From assembly GCA_000092065.1 (NCBI GenBank), contig CP000591.1: a stretch of DNA of 64,000 nucleotides; one strand, 5' to 3'. The position numbers and the translations under genes were made by a program. Shown piece after piece: positions 3,867 to 58,200 of this stretch (its first letter is position 1; every line of letters begins with the position of its first letter). The notes under the pieces are model-generated. The model searched no databases. It had not been told where the DNA came from and was given only the letters and a program-made list of their open reading frames with translations. Origin of the DNA: Ostreococcus lucimarinus (Eukaryota).

Positions 3867-3982
3867 GTGACCCAGGCAGGAGTCGAACCCGCAACCTTCA
3901 GATAACTTCAACGGCGTCCTCGCGTTCGCGAGGAGACTCTCGAATCACTGGAGTCTGACGCACTACCATTGTGCTACCGAGC
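3867..3982 (-). tRNA. tRNA-Trp (anticodon CCA) with a roughly 44-nt intron between positions 37 and 38
   Basis: The reverse complement reads GGCTCGG-TA-GCAC-AATGGTA-GTGC-G-TCAGA-CTCCAG[intron]A-TCTGA-AGGTT-GCGGG-TTCGACT-CCTGC-CTGGGTC-A. This closely matches eukaryotic tRNA-Trp (GTCTGACTCCAGATCAGAAGGTTGCG). The intron sits at the canonical position. Confidence 0.7.
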
Positions 3983-4612
3983 CATACATATTAAAGACAC
4001 ATTTAAGTCCATATGATATGACTAAATGAGCGATAAACTCCAATTAATGCGCCCTCTCGCGGGGATCGCACATGTGTTACGGGCGCGTCGACGCGCGACG
4101 CGTCGCGCGCGAATTCGCGGTCCACGTTCGCGCGCGCCGCACACTCCGCACGGATCTCTCACCCCCACCACACCTCTCGAGCGCGTTCCGCCCTCGTACG
4201 GTCGATAAAACGCACGCAGTTTTATCGTTTCATCGTTTCATCGCAGTTCAGGTGCGGGATTCGCGCGCGCGCGCGAGAAGGACGACATCGGGCGACACCG
4301 CGGGATTCGCGCGAGGGGTCGGTCGCGTCGCGCGGTGGATGCGCGACGCGACGCGGCGCGACGCGACGCGAATCCTCGTCGCGGTCGCGCGCGCGCGGGT
4401 TCGGCGATACGTTTTCGTCGACGTCGAACGCGCGCGCGAGGACGCGCGCGAAACGATCGACGAGGCGCGCGCGCGTCGATCGAACGCGACGAGGATTCGA
4501 GGGCGAGATAAAGATGGGAGCGAAGGCGGGAGCGAAGGCGGGAGCGAGCGAGCGAACGACTGACGCGATCGATCGTCGCGCCTGATGTAGACTACGAACA
4601 CACAGAAGAAGA

Positions 4613-7068: not shown

Positions 7069-8433
7069 TCACTTCGGGCCGTCGCCCTCGCCCAGGACGG
7101 TCTTTTGGCGCTTCGCGTCGCGCGCGTCGCCGACGCTGAAGACGTCGTCGAAGGTTTCGAGCGCGTTTAAAAACGCCTGGTCCATGTTGAAGTACTTGTA
7201 ACTCGCGAGGCGGCCGACGAAGACGACGCCGGGCTCTTTCGCCGCCATGTCGCGGTACTTTTCGTATAACTCGCGGTTGGCGGGGTTGGGAACGGGGTAA
7301 TACGGCTCGCCGTGATCGCACGAGTACTCTTTGAAGACGACGGTGCCCGCGTGCTCGCGCGCCTCGCGCGGCTGGTTGGGCTTGTGCTTGTACTCGACGA
7401 CGCGCGTGTGCTCGACTTCCGGACCGGGGTAGTTGAGCTGTAAGCACGGTTGGTAGAAGAATGGTTTCGTTTTGTCCTCGCCCTCGTGGTACTCTTCGAA
7501 GAAACGCAGACTTCGGTACTCGAGCTTGGGCAAACCTTGAGACGCGTACCACGCGTCGATGGGGCCGGTGAAGACGACGAACTTTCGCGCCTTGCTTCTC
7601 AACATGTCTTTGTGCTCAAAAAAGTCGGTGTTCAGGCGCACGGTGATGTTCGGATCGCCCATGATCATATTTTCGAAAATCCTCGTGTACCCGTGCTTCG
7701 GCAACGCTTGGTGCGGATCGCTAAAGTACCTATCGTCGACGTCTTCGCGCACGGGTATCCTCGCCAAGACGCTCGCGTCCAGCTCCTCGGGGTACTTATC
7801 CCACTGCTTCTTCGTGTAATGCTTAAATATCGCCTCGTACAGCTCCGCCCCCGCCCTCGTCAGCGCGCTCTCTTCTCCGTTCTTCGGATTCTCGTTCACC
7901 GACCGTCTGGCGTCCAACCATCTTCGCGCGTCCTCGTCCGTCTTCAAATCCGCCTCGGGAAACAGCGCGTTGATCGTGTCCCTGTTCGGCGGCACCCCCA
8001 CGATTCGGTACCGCCTCCCCCCGTGTTCGTACTCCCCGTCCTCGCGCTCGATCGCCGCCTTCACTCGGTGTTCGTACGGCGTCCACTCGCTGAATCGATT
8101 CACGTATTCCCACACCCGCGCGTGCTTCGTGTGAAACAAGTGCACGCCGTACTGCGACACCCTGAACCCCTTCGCGTTCACGAAGTCGTAGCAGTTCCCG
8201 CCGACGTGATCGCGCTTGTCCACGAGAAGCGTCTTCATCCCGAGCTCTCGCGACGCGCGGCTCGCGAAGACGCAGCCCGAGATGCCGGCGCCGACGACGA
8301 CGAGGTCGAACTCGCGGTCGCGAATCCGCGCGTCGCTCGCGACGCCGGCGAACCAGCTCGGATCGTGGTCGTTGCCGCGACGGACGGAGACGTCCACGCC
8401 CGCCCACTCGTCGGCGTCGGCGCGCGCGCGCAT
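7069..8433 (-). CDS. UGM: UDP-galactopyranose mutase
   Basis: FAD-binding DLVVVGAGISGCVFA motif. The segments YTKKQWDKYPEELDASVLARIPV and PYYPVPNPANRELYEKY are typical of eukaryotic UGM (Glf). Start taken at MRARADADEW (8433). The upstream 208 aa of the track ORF are repeat and run-through. Confidence 0.85.
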   Translation of the reverse strand: MRARADADEWAGVDVSVRRGNDHDPSWFAGVASDARIRDREFDLVVVGAGISGCVFASRASRELGMKTLLVDKRDHVGGNCYDFVNAKGFRVSQYGVHLFHTKHARVWEYVNRFSEWTPYEHRVKAAIEREDGEYEHGGRRYRIVGVPPNRDTINALFPEADLKTDEDARRWLDARRSVNENPKNGEESALTRAGAELYEAIFKHYTKKQWDKYPEELDASVLARIPVREDVDDRYFSDPHQALPKHGYTRIFENMIMGDPNITVRLNTDFFEHKDMLRSKARKFVVFTGPIDAWYASQGLPKLEYRSLRFFEEYHEGEDKTKPFFYQPCLQLNYPGPEVEHTRVVEYKHKPNQPREAREHAGTVVFKEYSCDHGEPYYPVPNPANRELYEKYRDMAAKEPGVVFVGRLASYKYFNMDQAFLNALETFDDVFSVGDARDAKRQKTVLGEGDGPK

Positions 8434-8648: not shown

Positions 8649-8661
8649 ATGGGCGCCGCGC

Positions 8662-8723
<62 letters not shown>

Positions 8724-9467
8724 CCGCGCGACGCCGCGCGCGCGTCGTCGTCGCCGCCGGACGACGACGCGCCGACGCTCGCGCGCGCGCGCGAGGACGA
8801 CGCGACGCTGCGAACGAGCGAACCGTTGTTGACGCCGCGCGTGGCGCGCGCGCTGCGAGCGCGCGTCGAGCCGAGGGCGGGCGCGGTGACGTGGACGCGC
8901 GCGTTCGATTCGCGCGCGTGCGGATTGGCGAGTCTTCGTCGCGTCGTCGAGCGGTGCGCGGGCGTCGGACGCGCGCTCGTGCTCGTGCAACCCGAGGCGG
9001 CGGACGAGGCCGAGGCCGAGGACGAGGACGAGGCGTACTACGTCGCGCACGTCTCACCGGGTTTCCAAGCGAAGCCTCGGCACGATTTCCACGGCGACGA
9101 CGCGTGCAAGACGTTTCGCGTCGACGGAAAACGCGGCGTCGTCGTCGACACGTCCGGGGTCTCCGTCGCGCCGCTGTATTGCGCGTACGGCTACTCCCGA
9201 CACGGCGACGTCGTCAACGGGTTCGGGATGTTCGGTAAGATCGGGCGCCACGCCTTATTCGTGGACGCCGCCCTGGAAAACGCGCACGCGGACTTCGGCG
9301 CGCGTCGCTTCTCCGTGCGTCGCGTCGAAGTCTGGGCGCTTGAGGCGCGCGCGCCCGGAATCGACGCCGGCGCTTCGCCGCGCGCGGCGACGCGCGATCG
9401 AGCGACGATGGCGCAGTTTACGTCATCCGCGATCGCCCGCGACGTCCTCGACGCCACGACCGGCTGA
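8649..9467 (+). CDS. hypothetical protein whose C-terminal approximately 96 aa are duplicated downstream at 11611-11904
   Basis: 272-aa ORF. The N-terminus is low-complexity (MGAAPSSPSS..., possible MGxxxS myristoylation motif). A globular-looking region (AYYVAHVSPGFQAKPRHDFHGDD...GFGMFGKIGRHALFVDAALENAHADFG) spans the repeat boundary at 9175. No family recognised. Confidence 0.4.
8651..8726. repeat. (GTCGTCGCC)n microsatellite, about 8 units, in the divergent UGM / 8649-gene promoter and 5-prime region
   Basis: Direct reading. It translates as SPSSPSS on the plus strand and TTATTATT on the minus strand inside two different ORF extensions. Confidence 0.6.
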
Positions 9468-10119
9468 CATCAAGACCGCGACGGAACGTCGAGGAAAGAT
9501 CTCGTCGACGCGCTGTTTCGCGAGTGCGGCGGACCAGAAGGTGTGGGAGGCGCTGACGGATACGCGCGGCGTACGAGGCGACGTTCGCGGCGATTGAGGA
9601 CGCGCGTCGCGCGAGATAGATGATAGATTGATACTAGATAGATCTGATGCAGCTCCTAGGCAGTCTCCTACGCGGTAGGAGACCTTGTTGTAACATACGA
9701 TGTACGACGGATCCAAAAAGTGCGAGCACGTCACCGTCGACGACCCGTCCTCGAGCGCGCGAGCGCGACGCGCCGTTTTCAGTGACAAAAAAGAATGGCA
9801 ACTTTGTTACCTCACCGGGATTCGAACCCGAGTCTGTTCGTGGAAGCGCGTGGCGTGTCCGTCAGTGTCGCGTTCACAATTTTTGGTGTCAACGTGTCCG
9901 TTCGCGTGTTCACGTGCGATGGGCGCGAAGATGCGTAGAATACGTACCTCTAGGGTGAAAGCCTAGCGTGATAACCATCTACACTATGAAGTACCGCTCG
10001 ACCCCGCAAGGGGCCGCAGCGATCGATCTCTCCGATGTTTCGGAGTTCACGGGATGTACTCATGTTTCAGCTCGTCCACACTTTCGTGTGGCTAGATAGA
10101 GATGTGTGCGGCTTGACAC
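9175..10119. repeat. Copy 1 of a 945-bp direct repeat (segment A)
   Basis: Identical at the ORF-translation level in three frames to 11612-12556, with a constant offset of 2437 bp. Starts TGTATTGCG and ends GCTTGACA(C). Contains an ENY2-like gene fragment, a hairpin and a tRNA-like fragment. Confidence 0.8.
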
Positions 10120-10359
10120 GACGACGAGGTCGAACTCGCGGTCGCGAATCCGCGCGTCGCTCGCGACGCGGCGTCGTCGCGCGTCGTCGCTCGCGGGTGC
10201 GCGCGCGGCGCCATCACCGCGCGCCGCGAAGTGACGACGCCCGCGCCGCTCAGGAAAAATTTATATATCGCCCCTTTAGAGAGTACCTACACACATGACG
10301 AGTCATGAACCAAGGATGCGGGGAGATCTCGCCGTCGGCGCCACTCGTCGCCGCATACG

Positions 10360-11376
10360 ATGACCGATTCAGTCGCGCACGCCTCACCGACGTGGAGAAC
10401 GTACTCATTAGACCCGTCGCTGCAACCGGACTGGATGAACGGCACGGCGGAGGTAGAGGCGGTCAAAACAGCGGAGGATGAACTCGAGCGCTCGTACAAG
10501 AACAAGCCATTCTTCAAGAACACAAGCTACGAGGCATTCGCCAGAAAACGAGGCGAGTATGATAAACCGACGCCCGACGGCCTCGAGGAGTTCAAGCGTC
10601 TCCTACGGGCGAGTTATCTTCGCACCGTAGAGCGCATCGATGAAGATACCCAAGTTCTGGAAGCCCAGCTACAAGACGAGAATATCTCTGAAACGCGACG
10701 GTCGGTTATCCCGCAGCACATCGAGGACACTCGTGCGAAATTAAAAGAGCAAGACAATTCATTGAACGCGCTGTGCGCCGATGTGGATGCGGTTATCGCA
10801 GATTTGAAAGGCTTGCCCGATAAAATTGCCGACATAAAAGAACACGCCTCTGAACAACTTCAGCAACACAAAAGAAAAAGAACCAGTATATCTTTGGAAC
10901 GCAACCTCGAGGAGCTGAGCGATGCGCTGCGCAGCTACGAGGCGAAAAAAGAACAGGAGAGGCTCACAATTACCGATTATCGTGGGAAATATGGGTCATG
11001 TCCATCCCAGTATGTTCGCCAGACCGCCTGGGCACGCAGACCTTCTGGTCGTGAAGAAATTAGCTTCATTGTTCATCCTGTGGGTGTCATTGGCTGCGAT
11101 GGCAGTAACCTGAGCGTTGATGGACGTGTTTCGATTGATGGTTATGGTGAGTTTAACGTACCAAAATGGCAGCCTGAATGGGGACCTGAGAAGCAAATGT
11201 GTGCGTGCGAATGCTTCCAAGAGTGGTACAAAGTCGACGCCCAAGACCTTCTTTACAGCGCGCTTCGTGGCGTAGAGGGCGCGCTAAAGGCGCTCAGTGG
11301 TTCGGGAGATGACACGTCTTCGCTTCGACGGCGCTTGGGCGATGCCAATTTGGACGAAGCAAGCACGGGGAGTTAA
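10360..11376 (+). CDS. hypothetical coiled-coil protein, a compositional outlier at about 50% GC
   Basis: 338-aa intact ATG-initiated ORF with codon usage unlike the neighbouring genes. It has a Lys/Glu-rich predicted coiled-coil middle and a Cys/Trp-containing C-terminal region. Lies inside segment B between the two repeat copies. No family recognised. Confidence 0.45.
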   Translation: MTDSVAHASPTWRTYSLDPSLQPDWMNGTAEVEAVKTAEDELERSYKNKPFFKNTSYEAFARKRGEYDKPTPDGLEEFKRLLRASYLRTVERIDEDTQVLEAQLQDENISETRRSVIPQHIEDTRAKLKEQDNSLNALCADVDAVIADLKGLPDKIADIKEHASEQLQQHKRKRTSISLERNLEELSDALRSYEAKKEQERLTITDYRGKYGSCPSQYVRQTAWARRPSGREEISFIVHPVGVIGCDGSNLSVDGRVSIDGYGEFNVPKWQPEWGPEKQMCACECFQEWYKVDAQDLLYSALRGVEGALKALSGSGDDTSSLRRRLGDANLDEASTGS

Positions 11377-11410
11377 TATATGTGGACGTATATTTTGTTG
11401 TCCACGAATG

Positions 11411-11447
<37 letters not shown>

Positions 11448-11611
11448 CGCCTCCAGTCTCGACACAGTATCACTGAGTTCACTGCGAAGTTCGTCGATTT
11501 GCTGATCTCTCGAGGCAACGGCGGCCTCTAAATCGGCGATTTGAGCGTCGTGCTCGACGATTCTTTCGTGCAGCTCCTGGTTTGACTTGACGAGCACAGG
11601 AATGATTTGAG

Positions 11612-12556
11612 TGTATTGCGCGTACGGCTACTCCCGACACGGCGACGTCGTCAACGGGTTCGGGATGTTCGGTAAGATCGGGCGCCACGCCTTATTCGTG
11701 GACGCCGCCCTGGAAAACGCGCACGCGGACTTCGGCGCGCGTCGCTTCTCCGTGCGTCGCGTCGAAGTCTGGGCGCTTGAGGCGCGCGCGCCCGGAATCG
11801 ACGCCGGCGCTTCGCCGCGCGCGGCGACGCGCGATCGAGCGACGATGGCGCAGTTTACGTCATCCGCGATCGCCCGCGACGTCCTCGACGCCACGACCGG
11901 CTGACATCAAGACCGCGACGGAACGTCGAGGAAAGATCTCGTCGACGCGCTGTTTCGCGAGTGCGGCGGACCAGAAGGTGTGGGAGGCGCTGACGGATAC
12001 GCGCGGCGTACGAGGCGACGTTCGCGGCGATTGAGGACGCGCGTCGCGCGAGATAGATGATAGATTGATACTAGATAGATCTGATGCAGCTCCTAGGCAG
12101 TCTCCTACGCGGTAGGAGACCTTGTTGTAACATACGATGTACGACGGATCCAAAAAGTGCGAGCACGTCACCGTCGACGACCCGTCCTCGAGCGCGCGAG
12201 CGCGACGCGCCGTTTTCAGTGACAAAAAAGAATGGCAACTTTGTTACCTCACCGGGATTCGAACCCGAGTCTGTTCGTGGAAGCGCGTGGCGTGTCCGTC
12301 AGTGTCGCGTTCACAATTTTTGGTGTCAACGTGTCCGTTCGCGTGTTCACGTGCGATGGGCGCGAAGATGCGTAGAATACGTACCTCTAGGGTGAAAGCC
12401 TAGCGTGATAACCATCTACACTATGAAGTACCGCTCGACCCCGCAAGGGGCCGCAGCGATCGATCTCTCCGATGTTTCGGAGTTCACGGGATGTACTCAT
12501 GTTTCAGCTCGTCCACACTTTCGTGTGGCTAGATAGAGATGTGTGCGGCTTGACAC
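11612..12556. repeat. Copy 2 of the 945-bp direct repeat (segment A-prime)
   Basis: Same sequence as 9175-10119. The duplicated ORFs 11611-11904, 11628-11894, 11777-12034, 11860-12225, 12084-12395 and 12137-12403 are identical to their copy-1 counterparts. Confidence 0.8.
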
Positions 12557-16962: not shown

Positions 16963-18441
16963 GTGTCGTTCGGTCGCGACGACCGACGAAGGGTGTTGAC
17001 GCGCCAAAGCTCTAAACCCTACATCGCCGCGCGCGGCGGCGCCTCGCGCATGCGCGCGCGCGCGCGCGGCGCCCTCGAGCGCGCCGAACCCTCCGCGCGC
17101 GTTTCCCGCGCCGCGCGACGGCGCTTCCCGCGCCCTCGCGCGCCGTCGCGCGCGACATCGCGCGCGAACGACCGATTTCGCGACGCGCGCGACGACGACG
17201 ACGACGACGACGCGCGCGCGCGACAGTTCCTCCGACTCGCGCGCGACGCGCGCGATGGATCGTGGGCGCTGCAGAGCGCGACGGTGACGCTGCGGCCGCG
17301 CGACGCGAGCGCGCGAGCGACGCGAGCGCTGCGGGTGTGCGCGCTGGTGCACTACGGCGAGGCGCGGTACTATCGCGGCGTGGCGAAGGACTTCGAGACG
17401 CGCGAGAACGACGCGACGCTGGTCGAGCTGATCACGTCGAGGAAGCACTTGGAAGCGAGCGACGAGCGAGGGCTGAAACTGTGGCGGTTGAGCGAGGCGC
17501 TGGCGCCGACGGCGGAGGCGCGAGCGCTGGCGAACGCGCACGGGTTGCGCGCGCAGCTGGACGCGCTGGACGCGAGGGCGCGAGGATGGTACGTCGCGGA
17601 CGTGACGCGAGAGGAGTTGATCGCGCTGCGACGAGAGGCGGGAGAGATGACGGCGAAGACGGCGGAAGAGACGACGCGAAACGCGAAGCGGAGCGCGGTG
17701 TCGATGGGAGGGAATCTGCCGCCGGCGCTCGAGGCGCTGGCGGTGACGGCGTTCGGAAGGGCGTCGGAGGGCGATCCCGCGAGGCTGTTCGCGCGGTTGA
17801 GCTGTTGGTTCGTGCCGTGTCCGGAGGCGCATTTGTTGCTGCTCGATTGGGTGTGGGCGGGCGGGCGTCCGTCCGAGGTCTTGGGCGCGATGGTGGACTG
17901 TTGCGCGTCGGGTGATTTAGAATCCGCGCGTCGCTTGGCGTTCGCGCAGATGATCGTGAGCGCGCAAGCCGAGGGGCCGGCGGGCGGCGGTTCGACCGAG
18001 CCCGTTTTGGTCGCCCGACGCAACGACGTCGCGATGGACGGGGTGAACAAGGCGTTCAAGGCGCCCGAAATCGACACCGTCAACCTGTTGTACGGCGGTT
18101 TGCACGTCCCGGGACTCGTGCGGTGCGCCCGCGAGCGTTTAGACATGGAAGTCGTCGACGTGGCGTGGCGAGACGCCTGGCGCGTGCAACCGCCGGAGAA
18201 CGCGTCGCCTCTCAGATACGCCATAGTGCCGCTCATTCTCGGCATCGACGGCACGGATTGGGCGCAAACGCTTCACGACGCCGTCGCGCTCGGCGCGAGC
18301 GCCGGTATTCTTTCCACGTTTCTCTACATCGTTCGTCACGGCGCGCTGTATTACGCCCTCGGCAAGTGGCTTCTCGAGTGGAATCGCCAACTCTTCGACG
18401 CCGACGTCGGTCCGTCGCCGGAGAATGTAAAATATCGTTAA
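16963..18441 (+). CDS. hypothetical protein, possible TraB/PrgY/GumN family
   Basis: 492-aa ORF with VCALVHYGEARYY and a C-terminal NLLYGGLHVPGL segment reminiscent of TraB-family motifs. The Arg-rich N-terminal roughly 100 aa may be a presequence or run-through. Weak. Confidence 0.3.
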   Translation: MSFGRDDRRRVLTRQSSKPYIAARGGASRMRARARGALERAEPSARVSRAARRRFPRPRAPSRATSRANDRFRDARDDDDDDDARARQFLRLARDARDGSWALQSATVTLRPRDASARATRALRVCALVHYGEARYYRGVAKDFETRENDATLVELITSRKHLEASDERGLKLWRLSEALAPTAEARALANAHGLRAQLDALDARARGWYVADVTREELIALRREAGEMTAKTAEETTRNAKRSAVSMGGNLPPALEALAVTAFGRASEGDPARLFARLSCWFVPCPEAHLLLLDWVWAGGRPSEVLGAMVDCCASGDLESARRLAFAQMIVSAQAEGPAGGGSTEPVLVARRNDVAMDGVNKAFKAPEIDTVNLLYGGLHVPGLVRCARERLDMEVVDVAWRDAWRVQPPENASPLRYAIVPLILGIDGTDWAQTLHDAVALGASAGILSTFLYIVRHGALYYALGKWLLEWNRQLFDADVGPSPENVKYR

Positions 18442-18491: not shown

Positions 18492-18875
18492 ATGCCTCGC
18501 CCCACCCCCGCGCCGCCGCCGCCGCCGGCGGCGCGCGACGTCGACGTCGAGCGCGACGCGCTCACCGCGATGCGCAAAGACGGCACGCTCGACGCCCTGC
18601 GCGCGCGCGCGGTCGAGCGCGTTCGCGCGGACCCAGAGATGAAAACCTTCACGGAATTCGCGGCGCGCGCGTCGCAGACGCTGCGCGACCCGCGAGCGAG
18701 GCGCGCGTCGAGGAAAGATCTCGTCGACGCGCTGTTTCACGAGTGCGGCGGACAGATTTTGAAGCAGGCGGACCAGAAGGTGTGGGAGGCGCTGACGGAT
18801 ACGCGCGACGAACTCGGCCGCGCGGCGTACGAGGCGACGTTCGCGGCGATGGAGGACGCGCGTCGCGCGAGATAG
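18492..18875 (+). CDS. ENY2/Sus1-like small protein (SAGA/TREX-2 subunit)
   Basis: 127 aa. ...PEMKTFTEFAARAS...DLVDALFHECGGQILKQADQKVWEALTD follows the ENY2 pattern (LKAHCKEVIKEKG...[26 protein letters not shown]). Degenerate partial copies of its 3-prime end occur at about 9490-9650 and 11927-12087. Confidence 0.4.
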   Translation: MPRPTPAPPPPPAARDVDVERDALTAMRKDGTLDALRARAVERVRADPEMKTFTEFAARASQTLRDPRARRASRKDLVDALFHECGGQILKQADQKVWEALTDTRDELGRAAYEATFAAMEDARRAR

Positions 18876-19157
18876 ATACCGATAGATAATAGATTGATAA
18901 TACATAGATCTGATGTAGCTGATGCCGCCGCCGTCGCGTCGGACGGATCGCCTCGGTCGCCTTCGGTTCGCTTCTCGGCGGCGGCCGCCGACGCGGACGC
19001 CGCCGCGCGTCGCGGTCGTCATGCGCGCGGTTGTGCGGCGACGATTTATTTTACGCCGCGCGACGGGCGAGCGACGCCGGCGAATCGAGCGACGCTGAAT
19101 GCCCGTACGCTGGAATCGCGCGCGAACGCTGACGCGACGATTCGTCCGAGTGGGTGG

Positions 19158-25259: not shown

Positions 25260-25308
25260 GGCCGCCGCGGTGCGCCGTCGTCGGCGGCGGCGTCGCGTCG
25301 GCGTCGCG

Positions 25309-25554
25309 GACGCGAGTCCCCTCCGATCGACGAGTGCTGACCCACGAACACGTATTTAAGCCACAAAACGCCACTGTAATCGAACCGCGCGACGCGAGTC
25401 CCCTCCGATCGACGAGTGCTGACCCATAAACACGTATTTAAGCCACAAAACGCCCGCGTAATCGAACCGCGCGACGCGAGTCCCCTCCGATCGACGAGTG
25501 CTGACCCACGAACACGTATTTAAGTCACAAAACGCCCGTGTAATCGAACCGCGC
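25309..25554. repeat. Tandem repeat of 3 x 82 bp, each unit containing a TATTTAAG motif
   Basis: Direct reading. The unit is GACGCGAGTCCCCTCCGATCGACGAGTGCTGACCCACGAACACGTATTTAAGCCACAAAACGCC...ATCGAACCGCGC, with a few substitutions between copies. It lies between the DJ-1 start (25259) and exon 1 of the VDAC-like gene (25796). Confidence 0.8.
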
Positions 25555-25795
25555 GACGCCGACCCCACCCGCGCGCGCGACGCGGCGCGCCATTCGACGC
25601 CGCTCGAGGTGCGCGACGCGACGCGACGCGACGGCGCGACGCGCGAAACCCGACGAACGATGGCGACGATCGACGCGACGGCTCGCGGCGCGGGCGCGCG
25701 CGACGACGGCGCGACGCGACGGCGAACGATGACTGACGCGAGGCGATCACGCCGTTTGCGCAGAGACGGAAATCGCGCACGCGCGCGCGAACGAC

Positions 25796-55237: not shown

Positions 55238-58200
55238 GTGAGGACGAAAAGAGGCGACATGGGGCACGCTTCGAACGATGCGAGCGGTCGCGGTCGACGA
55301 GGGATGACGTCGGGGACGGCGCTGCGAGCGTTGATGGCGGCGAGCGCGGCGACGTTGGCGCGCGCGAGCGCGACGACTTCGACGTGCGATTATTACATGA
55401 CGCCCGAGGGTGAGGGAACGACGATCGGGCAAACCGACGCGGGTACTATCATGAATCCGTTCGGGAGCTTGGAGGAGGCGCAGTTGGCGCTGAAACCGGG
55501 GCAGACGCTGTGCGTGTTGAGCGGGACGTACGAGCTCGACACGTTCATCGGGGCGGAGATCTTGGCGCGAGGTAATGCCGACGCGCCGATTACCATTCGC
55601 GGCTACCGCACGAGCGATGGTGCGGATTTGCCAAAGTTCCGGTTTAGCGGTGGTGTTGCGTTGGATTTTAGAGGTGCCGAGTACGTCACCGTAGAAGACA
55701 TTGAAGTCGACGGCGGCGCCTCGGAGGCGACTACGGAGGATGTCGTCAAAGCGTGGTGGAATGGTGAAAAGCTCGCGCACGTGGGTAGGACTTGCTTTAG
55801 AATTGGTCAAAAGTCGCGACACGTGAGCATCAAGCGAAACGCGTGCCACGACGTCAGTGAGGTGGCGGTAAACGTCGTCGACGCGTTATATTCATCAATC
55901 AAGCTCAACGTGTTTTATCGCATCGGTTGGTTTGGTGTCGGCGATATCGCTGCGGTGAAACGCACATACACCGCCGCGGTGGACGAAGACGAAGAAGATG
56001 ACTATCGGCTGGATGTACAAGGCAACGCGATCTGGGGCGTCGAATCGCACTTGTATGAGCGAACGGAGAATGCTTCGTACTCCAAATTTGTGAAGACTTT
56101 CGGCGTCGCTTTGGACGCTGTGGCGGATGAAGATCTACGAATGCGATTTTCCGAGAACGTCATCGCGTTCAACGCTAACGTTGGGATGAAGATCGCGCGT
56201 TCGCCGTACGTTGTCGTGAGCAAGAACACGTTCTACTCCGATCCCACCGCCGGCGCGTCTTTACTCACTGACTCAGCCATGACTTCGAAGTTAATTTTGA
56301 AGGATAACATCTTCTCCACGAGTCAAAGTGCTGACTTCGCGCTCGATGTGGGCGCATCATATGGTACCGATATCGATCCTGATTTCTTCCGCAACAACAT
56401 TGTCGCCGGAGGCGGTGCGGTTCTCGATGGCAACCTCACCGTCACGCGTATCTCGTCGCAACTCTTCGCGGATGCCGCGCACGGCAACTTTACCCTTCTT
56501 CCGGCGGCCGAAGAAAGTATCAACGCCACTACGGTACCAGGAGTGGATGCGGCGGTTTTGAAGGTTCTCGCTCGCGTGATGAAGGATTTCAATGCCGGTA
56601 CGATGGCGAGAAGCGAGTGGGTGGCGAATCACAAGACGCTCACCCAGTTGATCATCAAAACGGCGCCGTCGATGTACACAAAAATCACGTCCACGCGAAA
56701 AGGTCCGGAAGACGCATCGGTGCAGTTCACTGATCCCGTCACGAATGAGTTTTTCACGTTGAAACTCAATCCTGCGTACGCGCGCGATCTTTTCGAGCGC
56801 GGTGCGTCTCCGTTGGACGGCTCCGAGGATGAGAACGCGTATCCGTTGGATGGCCCCGACGATGAGAACGCGTATCCGATCTCTGTGGGTGCACTCGGTC
56901 AAGGTTACCCGGCGAATAACACTGGTTACCCGTCGAATAGCACTGGTTACCCGTCGAGTAGCACTGGATACCCGTCGGATAGCACTGGTTCTGGTTACCC
57001 GTCGAATAGCACTGGATACCCGGCAAGCGGATACCCGGCGAATAGCACTGGATATCCGGCAAAGGGATACCCGGCGAACAGCAACGGATATCCGGCAAAG
57101 GGATACCCGGCGAACAGCACTGGATATCCGGCAAAGGGATACCCGGCGAACAGCAACGGATATCCGGCAAAGGGATACCCGGCGAACAGCACCGGATATC
57201 CGGCAAAGGGATACCCGGCGAACAGCAACGGATATCCGGCAAAGGGATACCCGGCGAACAGCACCGGATATCCGGCAAAGGGATACCCGGCGAACAGCAA
57301 CGGATATCCGGCAAAGGGATACCCGGCGAACAGCAACGGATATCCGGCCAACAGCGATGGGTATCCAGCGACGCGGACGCCAGCCATGCCGGAAAGCATC
57401 GCCGAACAGATAGAAGACGCCGTCGCGGACGCCGTCCAGCAAATTCAAAGTGTCACGGCGAACGCGACTGAGGAGATTGTACAGGCTGAGGCAGAAGCGG
57501 TGACTAACGTGACCGAGACGGCGGGAGACGAAGAAGGATCCGACGTGGATGAGTTGTTGGCGGACGCCACAAATGACGTTTCGCCACCGCCGCCACCGCC
57601 GCCGCCGCCGAGACGCAAGCCGCCGCCGCCGCCGCCGCCGTACCCGGGCACGGTCCAACCGCCGTCGCCACCGCTTCCGCCGGCACCTCCTCATGTGGAT
57701 AGCGAAGCTGGCCTCGTGAATGGTCGCATCGTCATTCCCGTAAGGGACACGCTCAGAGATTTCCTTCTGGAGAGAAATGAAGTAGTGAACGCGTCCTCGA
57801 TGAGCTTGGACCATCCGGATGAAGATGTATCCGAAATCGAAGATCTTGAGCCGGAGTGCTACAATCCTCCGCGCGGATGTCCGGCCATATTCCATTTGAG
57901 CAACTACAGAGCTCAAGCGGTGTCAAAAGTGTCTGATGACTCGTCCACGTCGTACTCGAGCGACCGAGCGGCGTTCGCGGCGTATCGTGGCGAGCGTTTC
58001 GCTACTGAACAGTCACGAGGTTCGGTGCAGGAGTTCGATGCACAGCGGCCGGTGGAAGATAGTCCGTACGGACCGAACATTGATAGAGCCTTCTTTGCCG
58101 CACTTGGGATGCAAAAGGAGTCCGCATTCAAACCGAATGAGATCATCGCCCCGATGGCTGTCCTCATGGTCATCGCCGCCGCGGTTGTCGCGAGCGAGAG

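Follow-up and report, generated by a model that had tools for sequence, protein, structure and literature searches.

Filler DNA, or templated insertion, is known from plant end-joining junctions, from polymerase-theta-mediated end joining and from FoSTeS/MMBIR template switching. Here we describe a stretch of 64,000 nucleotides from Ostreococcus lucimarinus (contig CP000591.1 of assembly GCA_000092065.1; hereafter the window) in which a degenerate copy of the 3′ end of a small gene lies beside another gene that has been inverted in this lineage. Like filler DNA, the fragment is a short stretch derived from a nearby template on the same chromosome, occupies a structural breakpoint interval, and is an error-prone copy with jumps at short direct repeats; a second templated piece, 57 bp from the UDP-galactopyranose mutase (UGM) gene, sits at another junction of the locus. 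Unlike typical examples, the fragment at 168–215 bp stands at the long end for end-joining filler and shows no convincing junction microhomology, and its link to the inversion rests on comparative gene order.

Other gene-derived fragments provide further points of reference. Unprocessed pseudogene fragments are likewise partial duplicates made at the DNA level, with frameshifting deletions and no coding capacity, but the fragment described here covers only the last 44% of the coding sequence of its source and carries few substitutions relative to its deletions. Capture by transposons such as Pack-MULEs, Helitrons and CACTA elements also moves a piece of a host gene beside another gene, and a mobile cassette does lie nearby; the fragment, however, shows neither terminal inverted repeats nor a target-site duplication nor Helitron-type ends, and it predates the cassette, being present in cassette-free alleles. 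Processed pseudogenes share its 3′ bias and 5′ truncation, whereas the fragment lacks both a poly(A) tract and a target-site duplication.

The source gene, at 18492–18875 on the plus strand, is one uninterrupted open reading frame of 127 codons for a helical protein of 127 residues. A preliminary description of the window had proposed that a degenerate copy of the 3′ end of this gene, comprising roughly 60 codons, lies at 9480–9650. Pairwise alignment of this region with the gene at 18.5 kb confirms the match, with MAFFT alignment, self-BLAST and gapped local alignment in agreement, and shifts its limits by a few bases: positions 9487–9654 (plus strand) match 18706–18920 (plus strand), a source segment that spans codons 72–127 with the stop and extends about 45 bp into the 3′ flank. 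The fragment thus represents, in degenerate form, the last 56 codons, the stop and approximately 35 bp of the flank. Gapped local alignment pairs 168 bases with five mismatches (97% identity), two of them among 135 coding positions and three among 33 positions of the flank. In self-BLAST the similarity appears as blocks of 52 bp (96% identity, E = 2e-16), 41 bp (100%, E = 3e-14) and 81 bp (91%, E = 3e-24), and no trace of the 5′ two-thirds of the small gene is found beside the fragment.

Two internal deletions at short direct repeats had been recognized previously, and both are present: 20 bp (GGCGGACAGATTTTGAAGCA), flanked in the source by two GGCGGAC repeats, and 17 bp (CGCGCGACGAACTCGGC), flanked by two CGCGCG repeats. 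A third deletion, of 10 bp, lies in the 3′ flank between GATAGAT repeats, such that all three sit between direct repeats of 6–7 bp; the deletion-junction string of the fragment is GAGTGCGGCGGACCAGAAGG. In the gapped local alignment the three blocks fall in three different reading frames, and the fragment therefore cannot encode the source peptide. A twin at 11924–12091 (plus strand) is identical to the first copy, in keeping with the earlier claim that both copies of a local repeat contain the fragment. It follows a truncated, 97-codon copy of the tail of a TLDc-domain gene (open reading frame 11611–11904) within the second copy of that 945-bp repeat.

The direction of copying is apparent from orthologues of the small protein. 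Homologues at E ≤ 0.001 were limited to nine metagenome-derived protein clusters; the orthologues from metagenomes are 51–57% identical to the window protein and conserved in their C-terminal half. They keep the GGQILKQ and DELGRA motifs, precisely the residues removed by the 20-bp and 17-bp deletions, both of which break the frame. Since the orthologues retain what the fragment has lost, the gene is the source and the fragment the derived copy. At position 9520 the fragment reads CGC (Arg), as do five of the six orthologues, where the present gene reads CAC (His), which means that the source gene acquired a substitution of its own after it was copied. Moreover, the fragment is 97% identical to the O. 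lucimarinus gene versus about 73% to the orthologue in contig L035, which places its origin, as that of the inversion, within the O. lucimarinus lineage. The fragment is almost certainly a derived, non-coding DNA copy that is older than the 945-bp repeat containing it.

The name ENY2-like, under which the source gene was initially introduced, finds no support in Pfam, in a profile search of PDB sequences, in Foldseek or in hhalign. None of seven orthologues matches Pfam EnY2 (PF10163) at E ≤ 10, and the profile search of PDB sequences recovered neither ENY2 nor Sus1. Foldseek with a modest AlphaFold model of the protein (pLDDT 70) gave no match below E = 1 and no ENY2 or Sus1, and hhalign against human ENY2 returned a probability of 0.4%. 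Kinship with COMPASS Shg1/BOD1 was also considered and set aside: the weak Pfam matches of three of the seven orthologues (best E = 0.04) are not significant, and hhalign against human BOD1 gave a probability of 2%, leaving the relationship unsupported.

Downstream of the small gene, the 46 bp that follow its stop codon are the only intergenic part common to every haplotype compared. Past approximately 18921–18985 the haplotypes diverge by indels, and window positions 18921–19120 are highly variable: L007 is without 18922–19119 (junction L007:1098/1099), and L001–L003 carry about 1 kb of extra sequence beyond the flank (10492–11525), including a 282-residue open reading frame on the minus strand.

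Both copies of the fragment reside in a repeat of 945 bp, here termed R, whose copies at 9175–10119 and 11612–12556 (both plus strand) are 100% identical over their entire length by self-BLAST. Copy 1 is native and comprises codons 176–272 of the TLDc gene, the fragment, a tRNA-Glu gene and spacer. Copy 2 is polymorphic. Among long contigs from wild populations, retrieved from public assemblies by means of the small protein, L001, L002, L003 and L006 hold R once and insert-free, with window position 10119 joined directly to 12557, and all four already carry the fragment, with a single mismatch in L003. The fragment therefore predates the duplication of R and was duplicated along with the native sequence around it. 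Duplicated alleles occur in the independent metagenome contigs L005, L011, L012 and L014; L005, L011 and L014 span both duplication junctions and L012 spans the first. The duplicated arrangement of the reference is thus genuine, and R, with two contiguous native copies and a single-copy allele in the population, is a tandem or segmental duplication.

These observations revise the preliminary description, in which the segment corresponding to R was regarded as a mosaic of captured pieces assembled in at least three rounds. R is one contiguous native stretch, found in single copy in the four haplotypes named above, and the 'gene-8649 tail', counted as one of the captures, is the TLDc gene's own 3′ end in place, re-copied by the duplication. 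What survives of the three rounds is a pair of templated pieces of different age plus one duplication-with-insertion. The older piece, the small-gene tail, is found in every O. lucimarinus-type haplotype examined; the other, which is polymorphic, lies at 10118–10173 (plus strand) at the junction of R copy 1 with the insert and is a 57-bp copy, 98% identical, of approximately codons 29–47 of UGM (8294–8350).

The gene immediately upstream of the fragment is the TLDc-domain gene ('gene-8649') at 8649–9467 on the plus strand. Its window protein matches Pfam TLDc with E = 6e-4, below the Pfam cut-off, and its orthologues do so with E down to 3e-11. Protein searches for distant TLDc orthologues, the first of them dominated by low-complexity words, recovered just two near-identical proteins, and the orthologues compared here were taken from metagenome loci anchored on UGM. 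Gene order was compared through a metagenome scan anchored on the protein of the adjacent UGM gene (7069–8433, minus strand; GLF domain, E = 7e-68), which yielded loci from several Ostreococcus lineages. In four lineages whose UGM is 78–80% identical (L020–L025, L026–L028, L029–L033 and L034–L035), TLDc and UGM lie on the same strand, with the TLDc stop codon approximately 120–150 bp ahead of the UGM start codon. In O. lucimarinus (the window, L001–L006 and L018), TLDc is divergent from UGM. The orientations of USP and tRNA-Glu relative to UGM are unchanged in L020, L025 and L035, and those of FucT, the gene at 16963 and the small gene are unchanged where covered (L020 and/or L035), so that among the genes compared TLDc alone has flipped. 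A neighbour-joining tree of UGM nests O. lucimarinus among the tandem-type lineages, which makes the inversion the derived state.

The TLDc proteins of all clades align to their last residues, up to the stop codon, and the distal breakpoint of the inversion must therefore lie between that stop (9466) and the tRNA gene (9807), an interval of 340 bp (9467–9806). Intergenic DNA did not align between clades, and the breakpoint is fixed to this interval. The fragment starts 20 bp past the conserved stop and takes up half of the interval. Its position within the distal breakpoint interval of a lineage-specific single-gene inversion is a new observation. Neither the inversion without the fragment nor the fragment without the inversion was found in any lineage compared. 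In the other clades, a search for fragment-like copies returned the orthologous small gene of L035 and one further match, a GC-rich 52-bp segment of 80% identity on the opposite strand in the coding end of TLDc in L029–L033, which we treat as compositional.

Two features of the TLDc boundary are recorded here. The first block of the fragment shares its reading frame with the TGA stop codon of TLDc (window 9464–9534, …DATTG*HQDRDGTSRKDLVDALFRECGG…), and readthrough would add part of the small protein; because the position of the stop is conserved in other clades, this is probably a one-in-three coincidence. In L019 (1–650), which belongs to a lineage with a UGM of 83% identity, UGM is preceded not by TLDc but by a tandem array of 33-residue Cys-, His- and Trp-rich repeats (…GHLECLQYAHEHGCPWDE.TC…), another rearrangement of this boundary.

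We consider it moderately probable, at roughly 60%, that the fragment is templated filler laid down at the distal junction during the inversion of TLDc. Briefly, in the course of repairing a break, a DNA end would have been extended by about 215 bp on a template of the same chromosome and orientation that lies 6.8 kb distant in the unduplicated allele; candidate routes are synthesis-dependent repair, polymerase-theta end joining and MMBIR-type template switching. The three deletions could have arisen by slippage during error-prone synthesis or soon after. Three deletions against five substitutions are many for so young a copy, which suggests slippage over slow decay. At a much later stage the CCE9901 lineage would have acquired the twin, when the 945 bp of native sequence were duplicated in tandem, with a mobile cassette and the 57-bp UGM filler at the junction.

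The features expected of filler include a structural breakpoint, a nearby template on the same chromosome and microhomology at the junctions of the inserted piece. The fragment falls within 340 bp bounded by the conserved TLDc stop and a tRNA-Glu gene that has not inverted, and its template at 18706–18920 has the same orientation. There is also a local precedent, in that the junction of R with the insert holds a templated piece as well, 57 bp from 1.8 kb away, which indicates that repair of this kind has operated repeatedly at the locus. At the fragment ends, whose ancestral flanks do not align between clades, we found no convincing microhomology; a 9-bp inverted match (9445–9453 with 9487–9495) does not stand out from several other matches in these GC-rich surroundings. 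A paper on rearrangement in Ostreococcus reports 4 nt of microhomology at one fusion site, and templated insertions are not mentioned in that account. The co-location of fragment and breakpoint is circumstantial. Most likely the fragment is an ordinary repair scar left by a known kind of event, and not a working piece of a gene.

The same spacer is a hotspot of structural variation with at least five alleles, so that an independent insertion there would not be improbable and the independent arrival of the fragment stays a viable rival. Under such an account, which we consider possible though rather unlikely, an ectopic duplication unrelated to the inversion delivered either a partial copy or a whole copy that was later trimmed from its 5′ side, and the fragment is a decaying unprocessed pseudogene. 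The spacer between TLDc, the tRNA gene and USP has gained insertions repeatedly, the insertions in the tRNA gene are polymorphic too, and a pseudogene decaying in a compact genome would be expected to lose sequence between short repeats. Against this, the fragment begins a mere 20 bp after the stop of precisely the gene that was inverted, inside an interval of 340 bp, and fragment and inversion are both lineage-specific and both present in every O. lucimarinus-type haplotype examined. Decay from a whole copy, moreover, has left nothing of the 5′ two-thirds of the small gene, and a divergence of 2 in 135 coding positions is very low for a copy that lost most of its length.

A further possibility concerns function, and because it is compatible with an origin as filler it would add only a role to that origin. 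The tail, with its 46-bp 3′ module, may have been kept by selection as a working 3′ UTR or terminator of the inverted TLDc gene, shielding the downstream tRNA and USP genes; we regard this as doubtful. At most 20 bp of native flank remain past the TLDc stop, the fragment is sense-oriented directly downstream of that stop, and it reaches about the end of the 46-bp flank common to all haplotypes, though minus 10 bp. The ending of its homology near the limit of this shared flank lends some support to a selected function, although the argument as a whole is a weak one. In O. lucimarinus, polyadenylation is signalled mainly by UGUAA (PMC6413133). The first TGTAA past the TLDc stop is at 9689–9693 (plus strand; twin at 12126), 35 bp beyond the fragment, and likely serves as the TLDc poly(A) signal. 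With so little native flank and the first UGUAA so placed, most of the TLDc 3′ UTR probably consists of the sense-oriented fragment. The signal itself probably does not come from the fragment, in which the UGUAG of the source has become UGCAG and which does not include the canonical UGUAA; this speaks against a selected transplant.

Conservation does not distinguish a selected transplant from an inert scar. Of the seven haplotype contigs compared, six carry the fragment unchanged and L003 has one mismatch, and the 261 bp at 9440–9700 are identical in L001, L002, L004, L005 and L006, again with one mismatch in L003. The haplotypes, however, are 99–100% identical nearly everywhere except at indel-rich spots, and with neighbouring sequence equally invariant we rejected haplotype conservation as a sign of function. 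RNA folding of the putative 3′ UTR (9467–9725) is ordinary overall (z = −0.86). This region does contain a perfect 9-bp hairpin at 9663–9683 (twin at 12100–12120; GTCTCCTAC-GCG-GTAGGAGAC), situated past the fragment but ahead of the TGTAA at 9689 and preceded by the palindrome CCTAGG. A more specific version of the proposal, that one MMBIR-like event both flipped TLDc and pasted in the tail from 6.8 kb away, and that this tail was then kept as a 3′ UTR, appears to us improbable.

Retroposition, in which reverse-transcribed cDNA of the small gene's mRNA was inserted as a 5′-truncated retrocopy, is highly improbable, although the fragment does contain only the 3′ end of the gene and terminates within the 3′ flank, near a candidate UGUAG signal. 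No A-rich or poly(A) tract was found at its 3′ end, where the sequence after 9654 is CCTAGGCAGTCTCC and runs on as CCTAGGCAGTC, and the homology stops 3 nt past the putative signal, ahead of the expected cleavage site. A search around 9487–9654 yielded no terminal inverted repeats and no target-site duplication, the only flanking direct repeats being chance short GC-rich words. The absence of terminal inverted repeats, target-site duplication and poly(A) argues against transposon capture and retroposition alike.

A chance or low-complexity similarity, or a twin created by misassembly, can be dismissed as next to impossible: the genome is rich in GC and in CG repeats, and the window contains many spurious GC-rich matches, but the 41-mer of the middle block (GGCGGACC...CGCGCG) occurs exactly at three places in the window versus zero expected (100 shuffles), self-BLAST E values reach 3e-24, and the duplication junctions are spanned by L005, L011 and L014 (the first also by L012). 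Nor is the match confined to the GATA/TAGA motifs of the 3′ flank. It is strongest in the coding part, and the eight occurrences of GATAGAT in the 64-kb window are confined to the two copies of the fragment and the source gene, so that GATAGAT is no widespread motif within the window.

In itself the fragment is a small non-coding scar of modest interest. Its value lies in providing a dated and well-delimited example of rearrangement in a minimal eukaryotic genome that has hardly any intergenic DNA to spare, in which the inversion of a single gene is marked by a templated copy from nearby and a later duplication-with-insertion at the same spot was also accompanied by a templated piece. The analysis corrects the picture of the locus in three respects: the repeat is no mosaic of serial captures, the TLDc tail is native and the name ENY2-like is not warranted for the source gene. 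Should the tail be needed for the formation of the TLDc 3′ end, repair filler would be able to rescue the function of a gene after its inversion; and were a single event with a retained tail the correct account, the locus would hold a natural 3′-UTR transplant in one of the most compact eukaryotic genomes. In the same conditional sense, the spacer adjacent to the tRNA gene would have been rearranged repeatedly by one mechanism, as its structural alleles, at least five in number, and the second filler from UGM might suggest.

The insert between the copies of R contains a dispersed cassette at 10253–11611 (plus strand), with a left end of GGAAAAATTTATATATCGCCCCTTT, a 338-residue open reading frame and a truncated, convergent 102-residue coiled-coil open reading frame. 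The 338-residue product is identical to XP_001420301.1 of O. lucimarinus CCE9901; no Pfam domain was found in the cassette, and a viral origin was rejected when IMG/VR yielded no relative. The left end is fixed beside at least four different flanks, namely the R locus, an SMP_LBD/MCM context, a RAI1 context and a 177-bp sequence. Further copies occur in L004 (1457–2911), L008 (5815–7400), L010 (3775–5344), L013 and L015, of which those in L004, L010 and L013 are inverted relative to the window; some of the short cassette-bearing contigs may be assembly chimeras, L008 and L015 being candidates. In L004 the 25-mer of the left end is present at both ends of the cassette in inverted orientation, with a 9-bp direct repeat, GCCACGCTC, outside, an arrangement that looks like terminal inverted repeats with a target-site duplication.

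The tRNA-Glu(UUC) gene that forms the far limit of the breakpoint interval (9807–9993, minus strand; twin at 12244–12430) is itself interrupted at position 44/45 by an insertion of about 114 nt. The gene escapes ARAGORN but scores 41.5 bits with Rfam. Such insertions vary in number and position among O. lucimarinus haplotypes: the window and L006 have the one of about 114 nt at 44/45, and L001 (3640–3960) has two, one immediately 5′ to the anticodon within its stem-loop, the other in the acceptor stem, on its 3′ strand. The gene is free of insertions in L003 (3735–3975) and in other clades (L020:4891–4963 and L035:8517–8589). Every insertion begins with GTACGT or GTGAGT and ends with CAG, ends that resemble the boundaries of spliceosomal introns, here inside a tRNA gene. 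Adjoining the 3′ end of the tRNA-Glu gene, L018 (754–4133) carries an insertion of 3.4 kb at window position 9798/9807, with an open reading frame of 700–930 residues that has Ala/Glu-rich repeats, a Cys-rich C-terminus and a weak GIY-YIG-like motif (Pfam E = 0.21, below threshold).

Elsewhere in the window, a second intron-containing tRNA gene lies at 3868–3983 on the minus strand. Three tandem repeats of 82 bp, 94–97% identical and apparently variable in copy number among haplotypes, occupy 25305–25559, and a tandem array with a period of about 36 bp extends over 56922–57348. Between 35000 and 45000, GC content falls to 0.49–0.55 over approximately 10 kb, compared with about 0.62 for the whole window.
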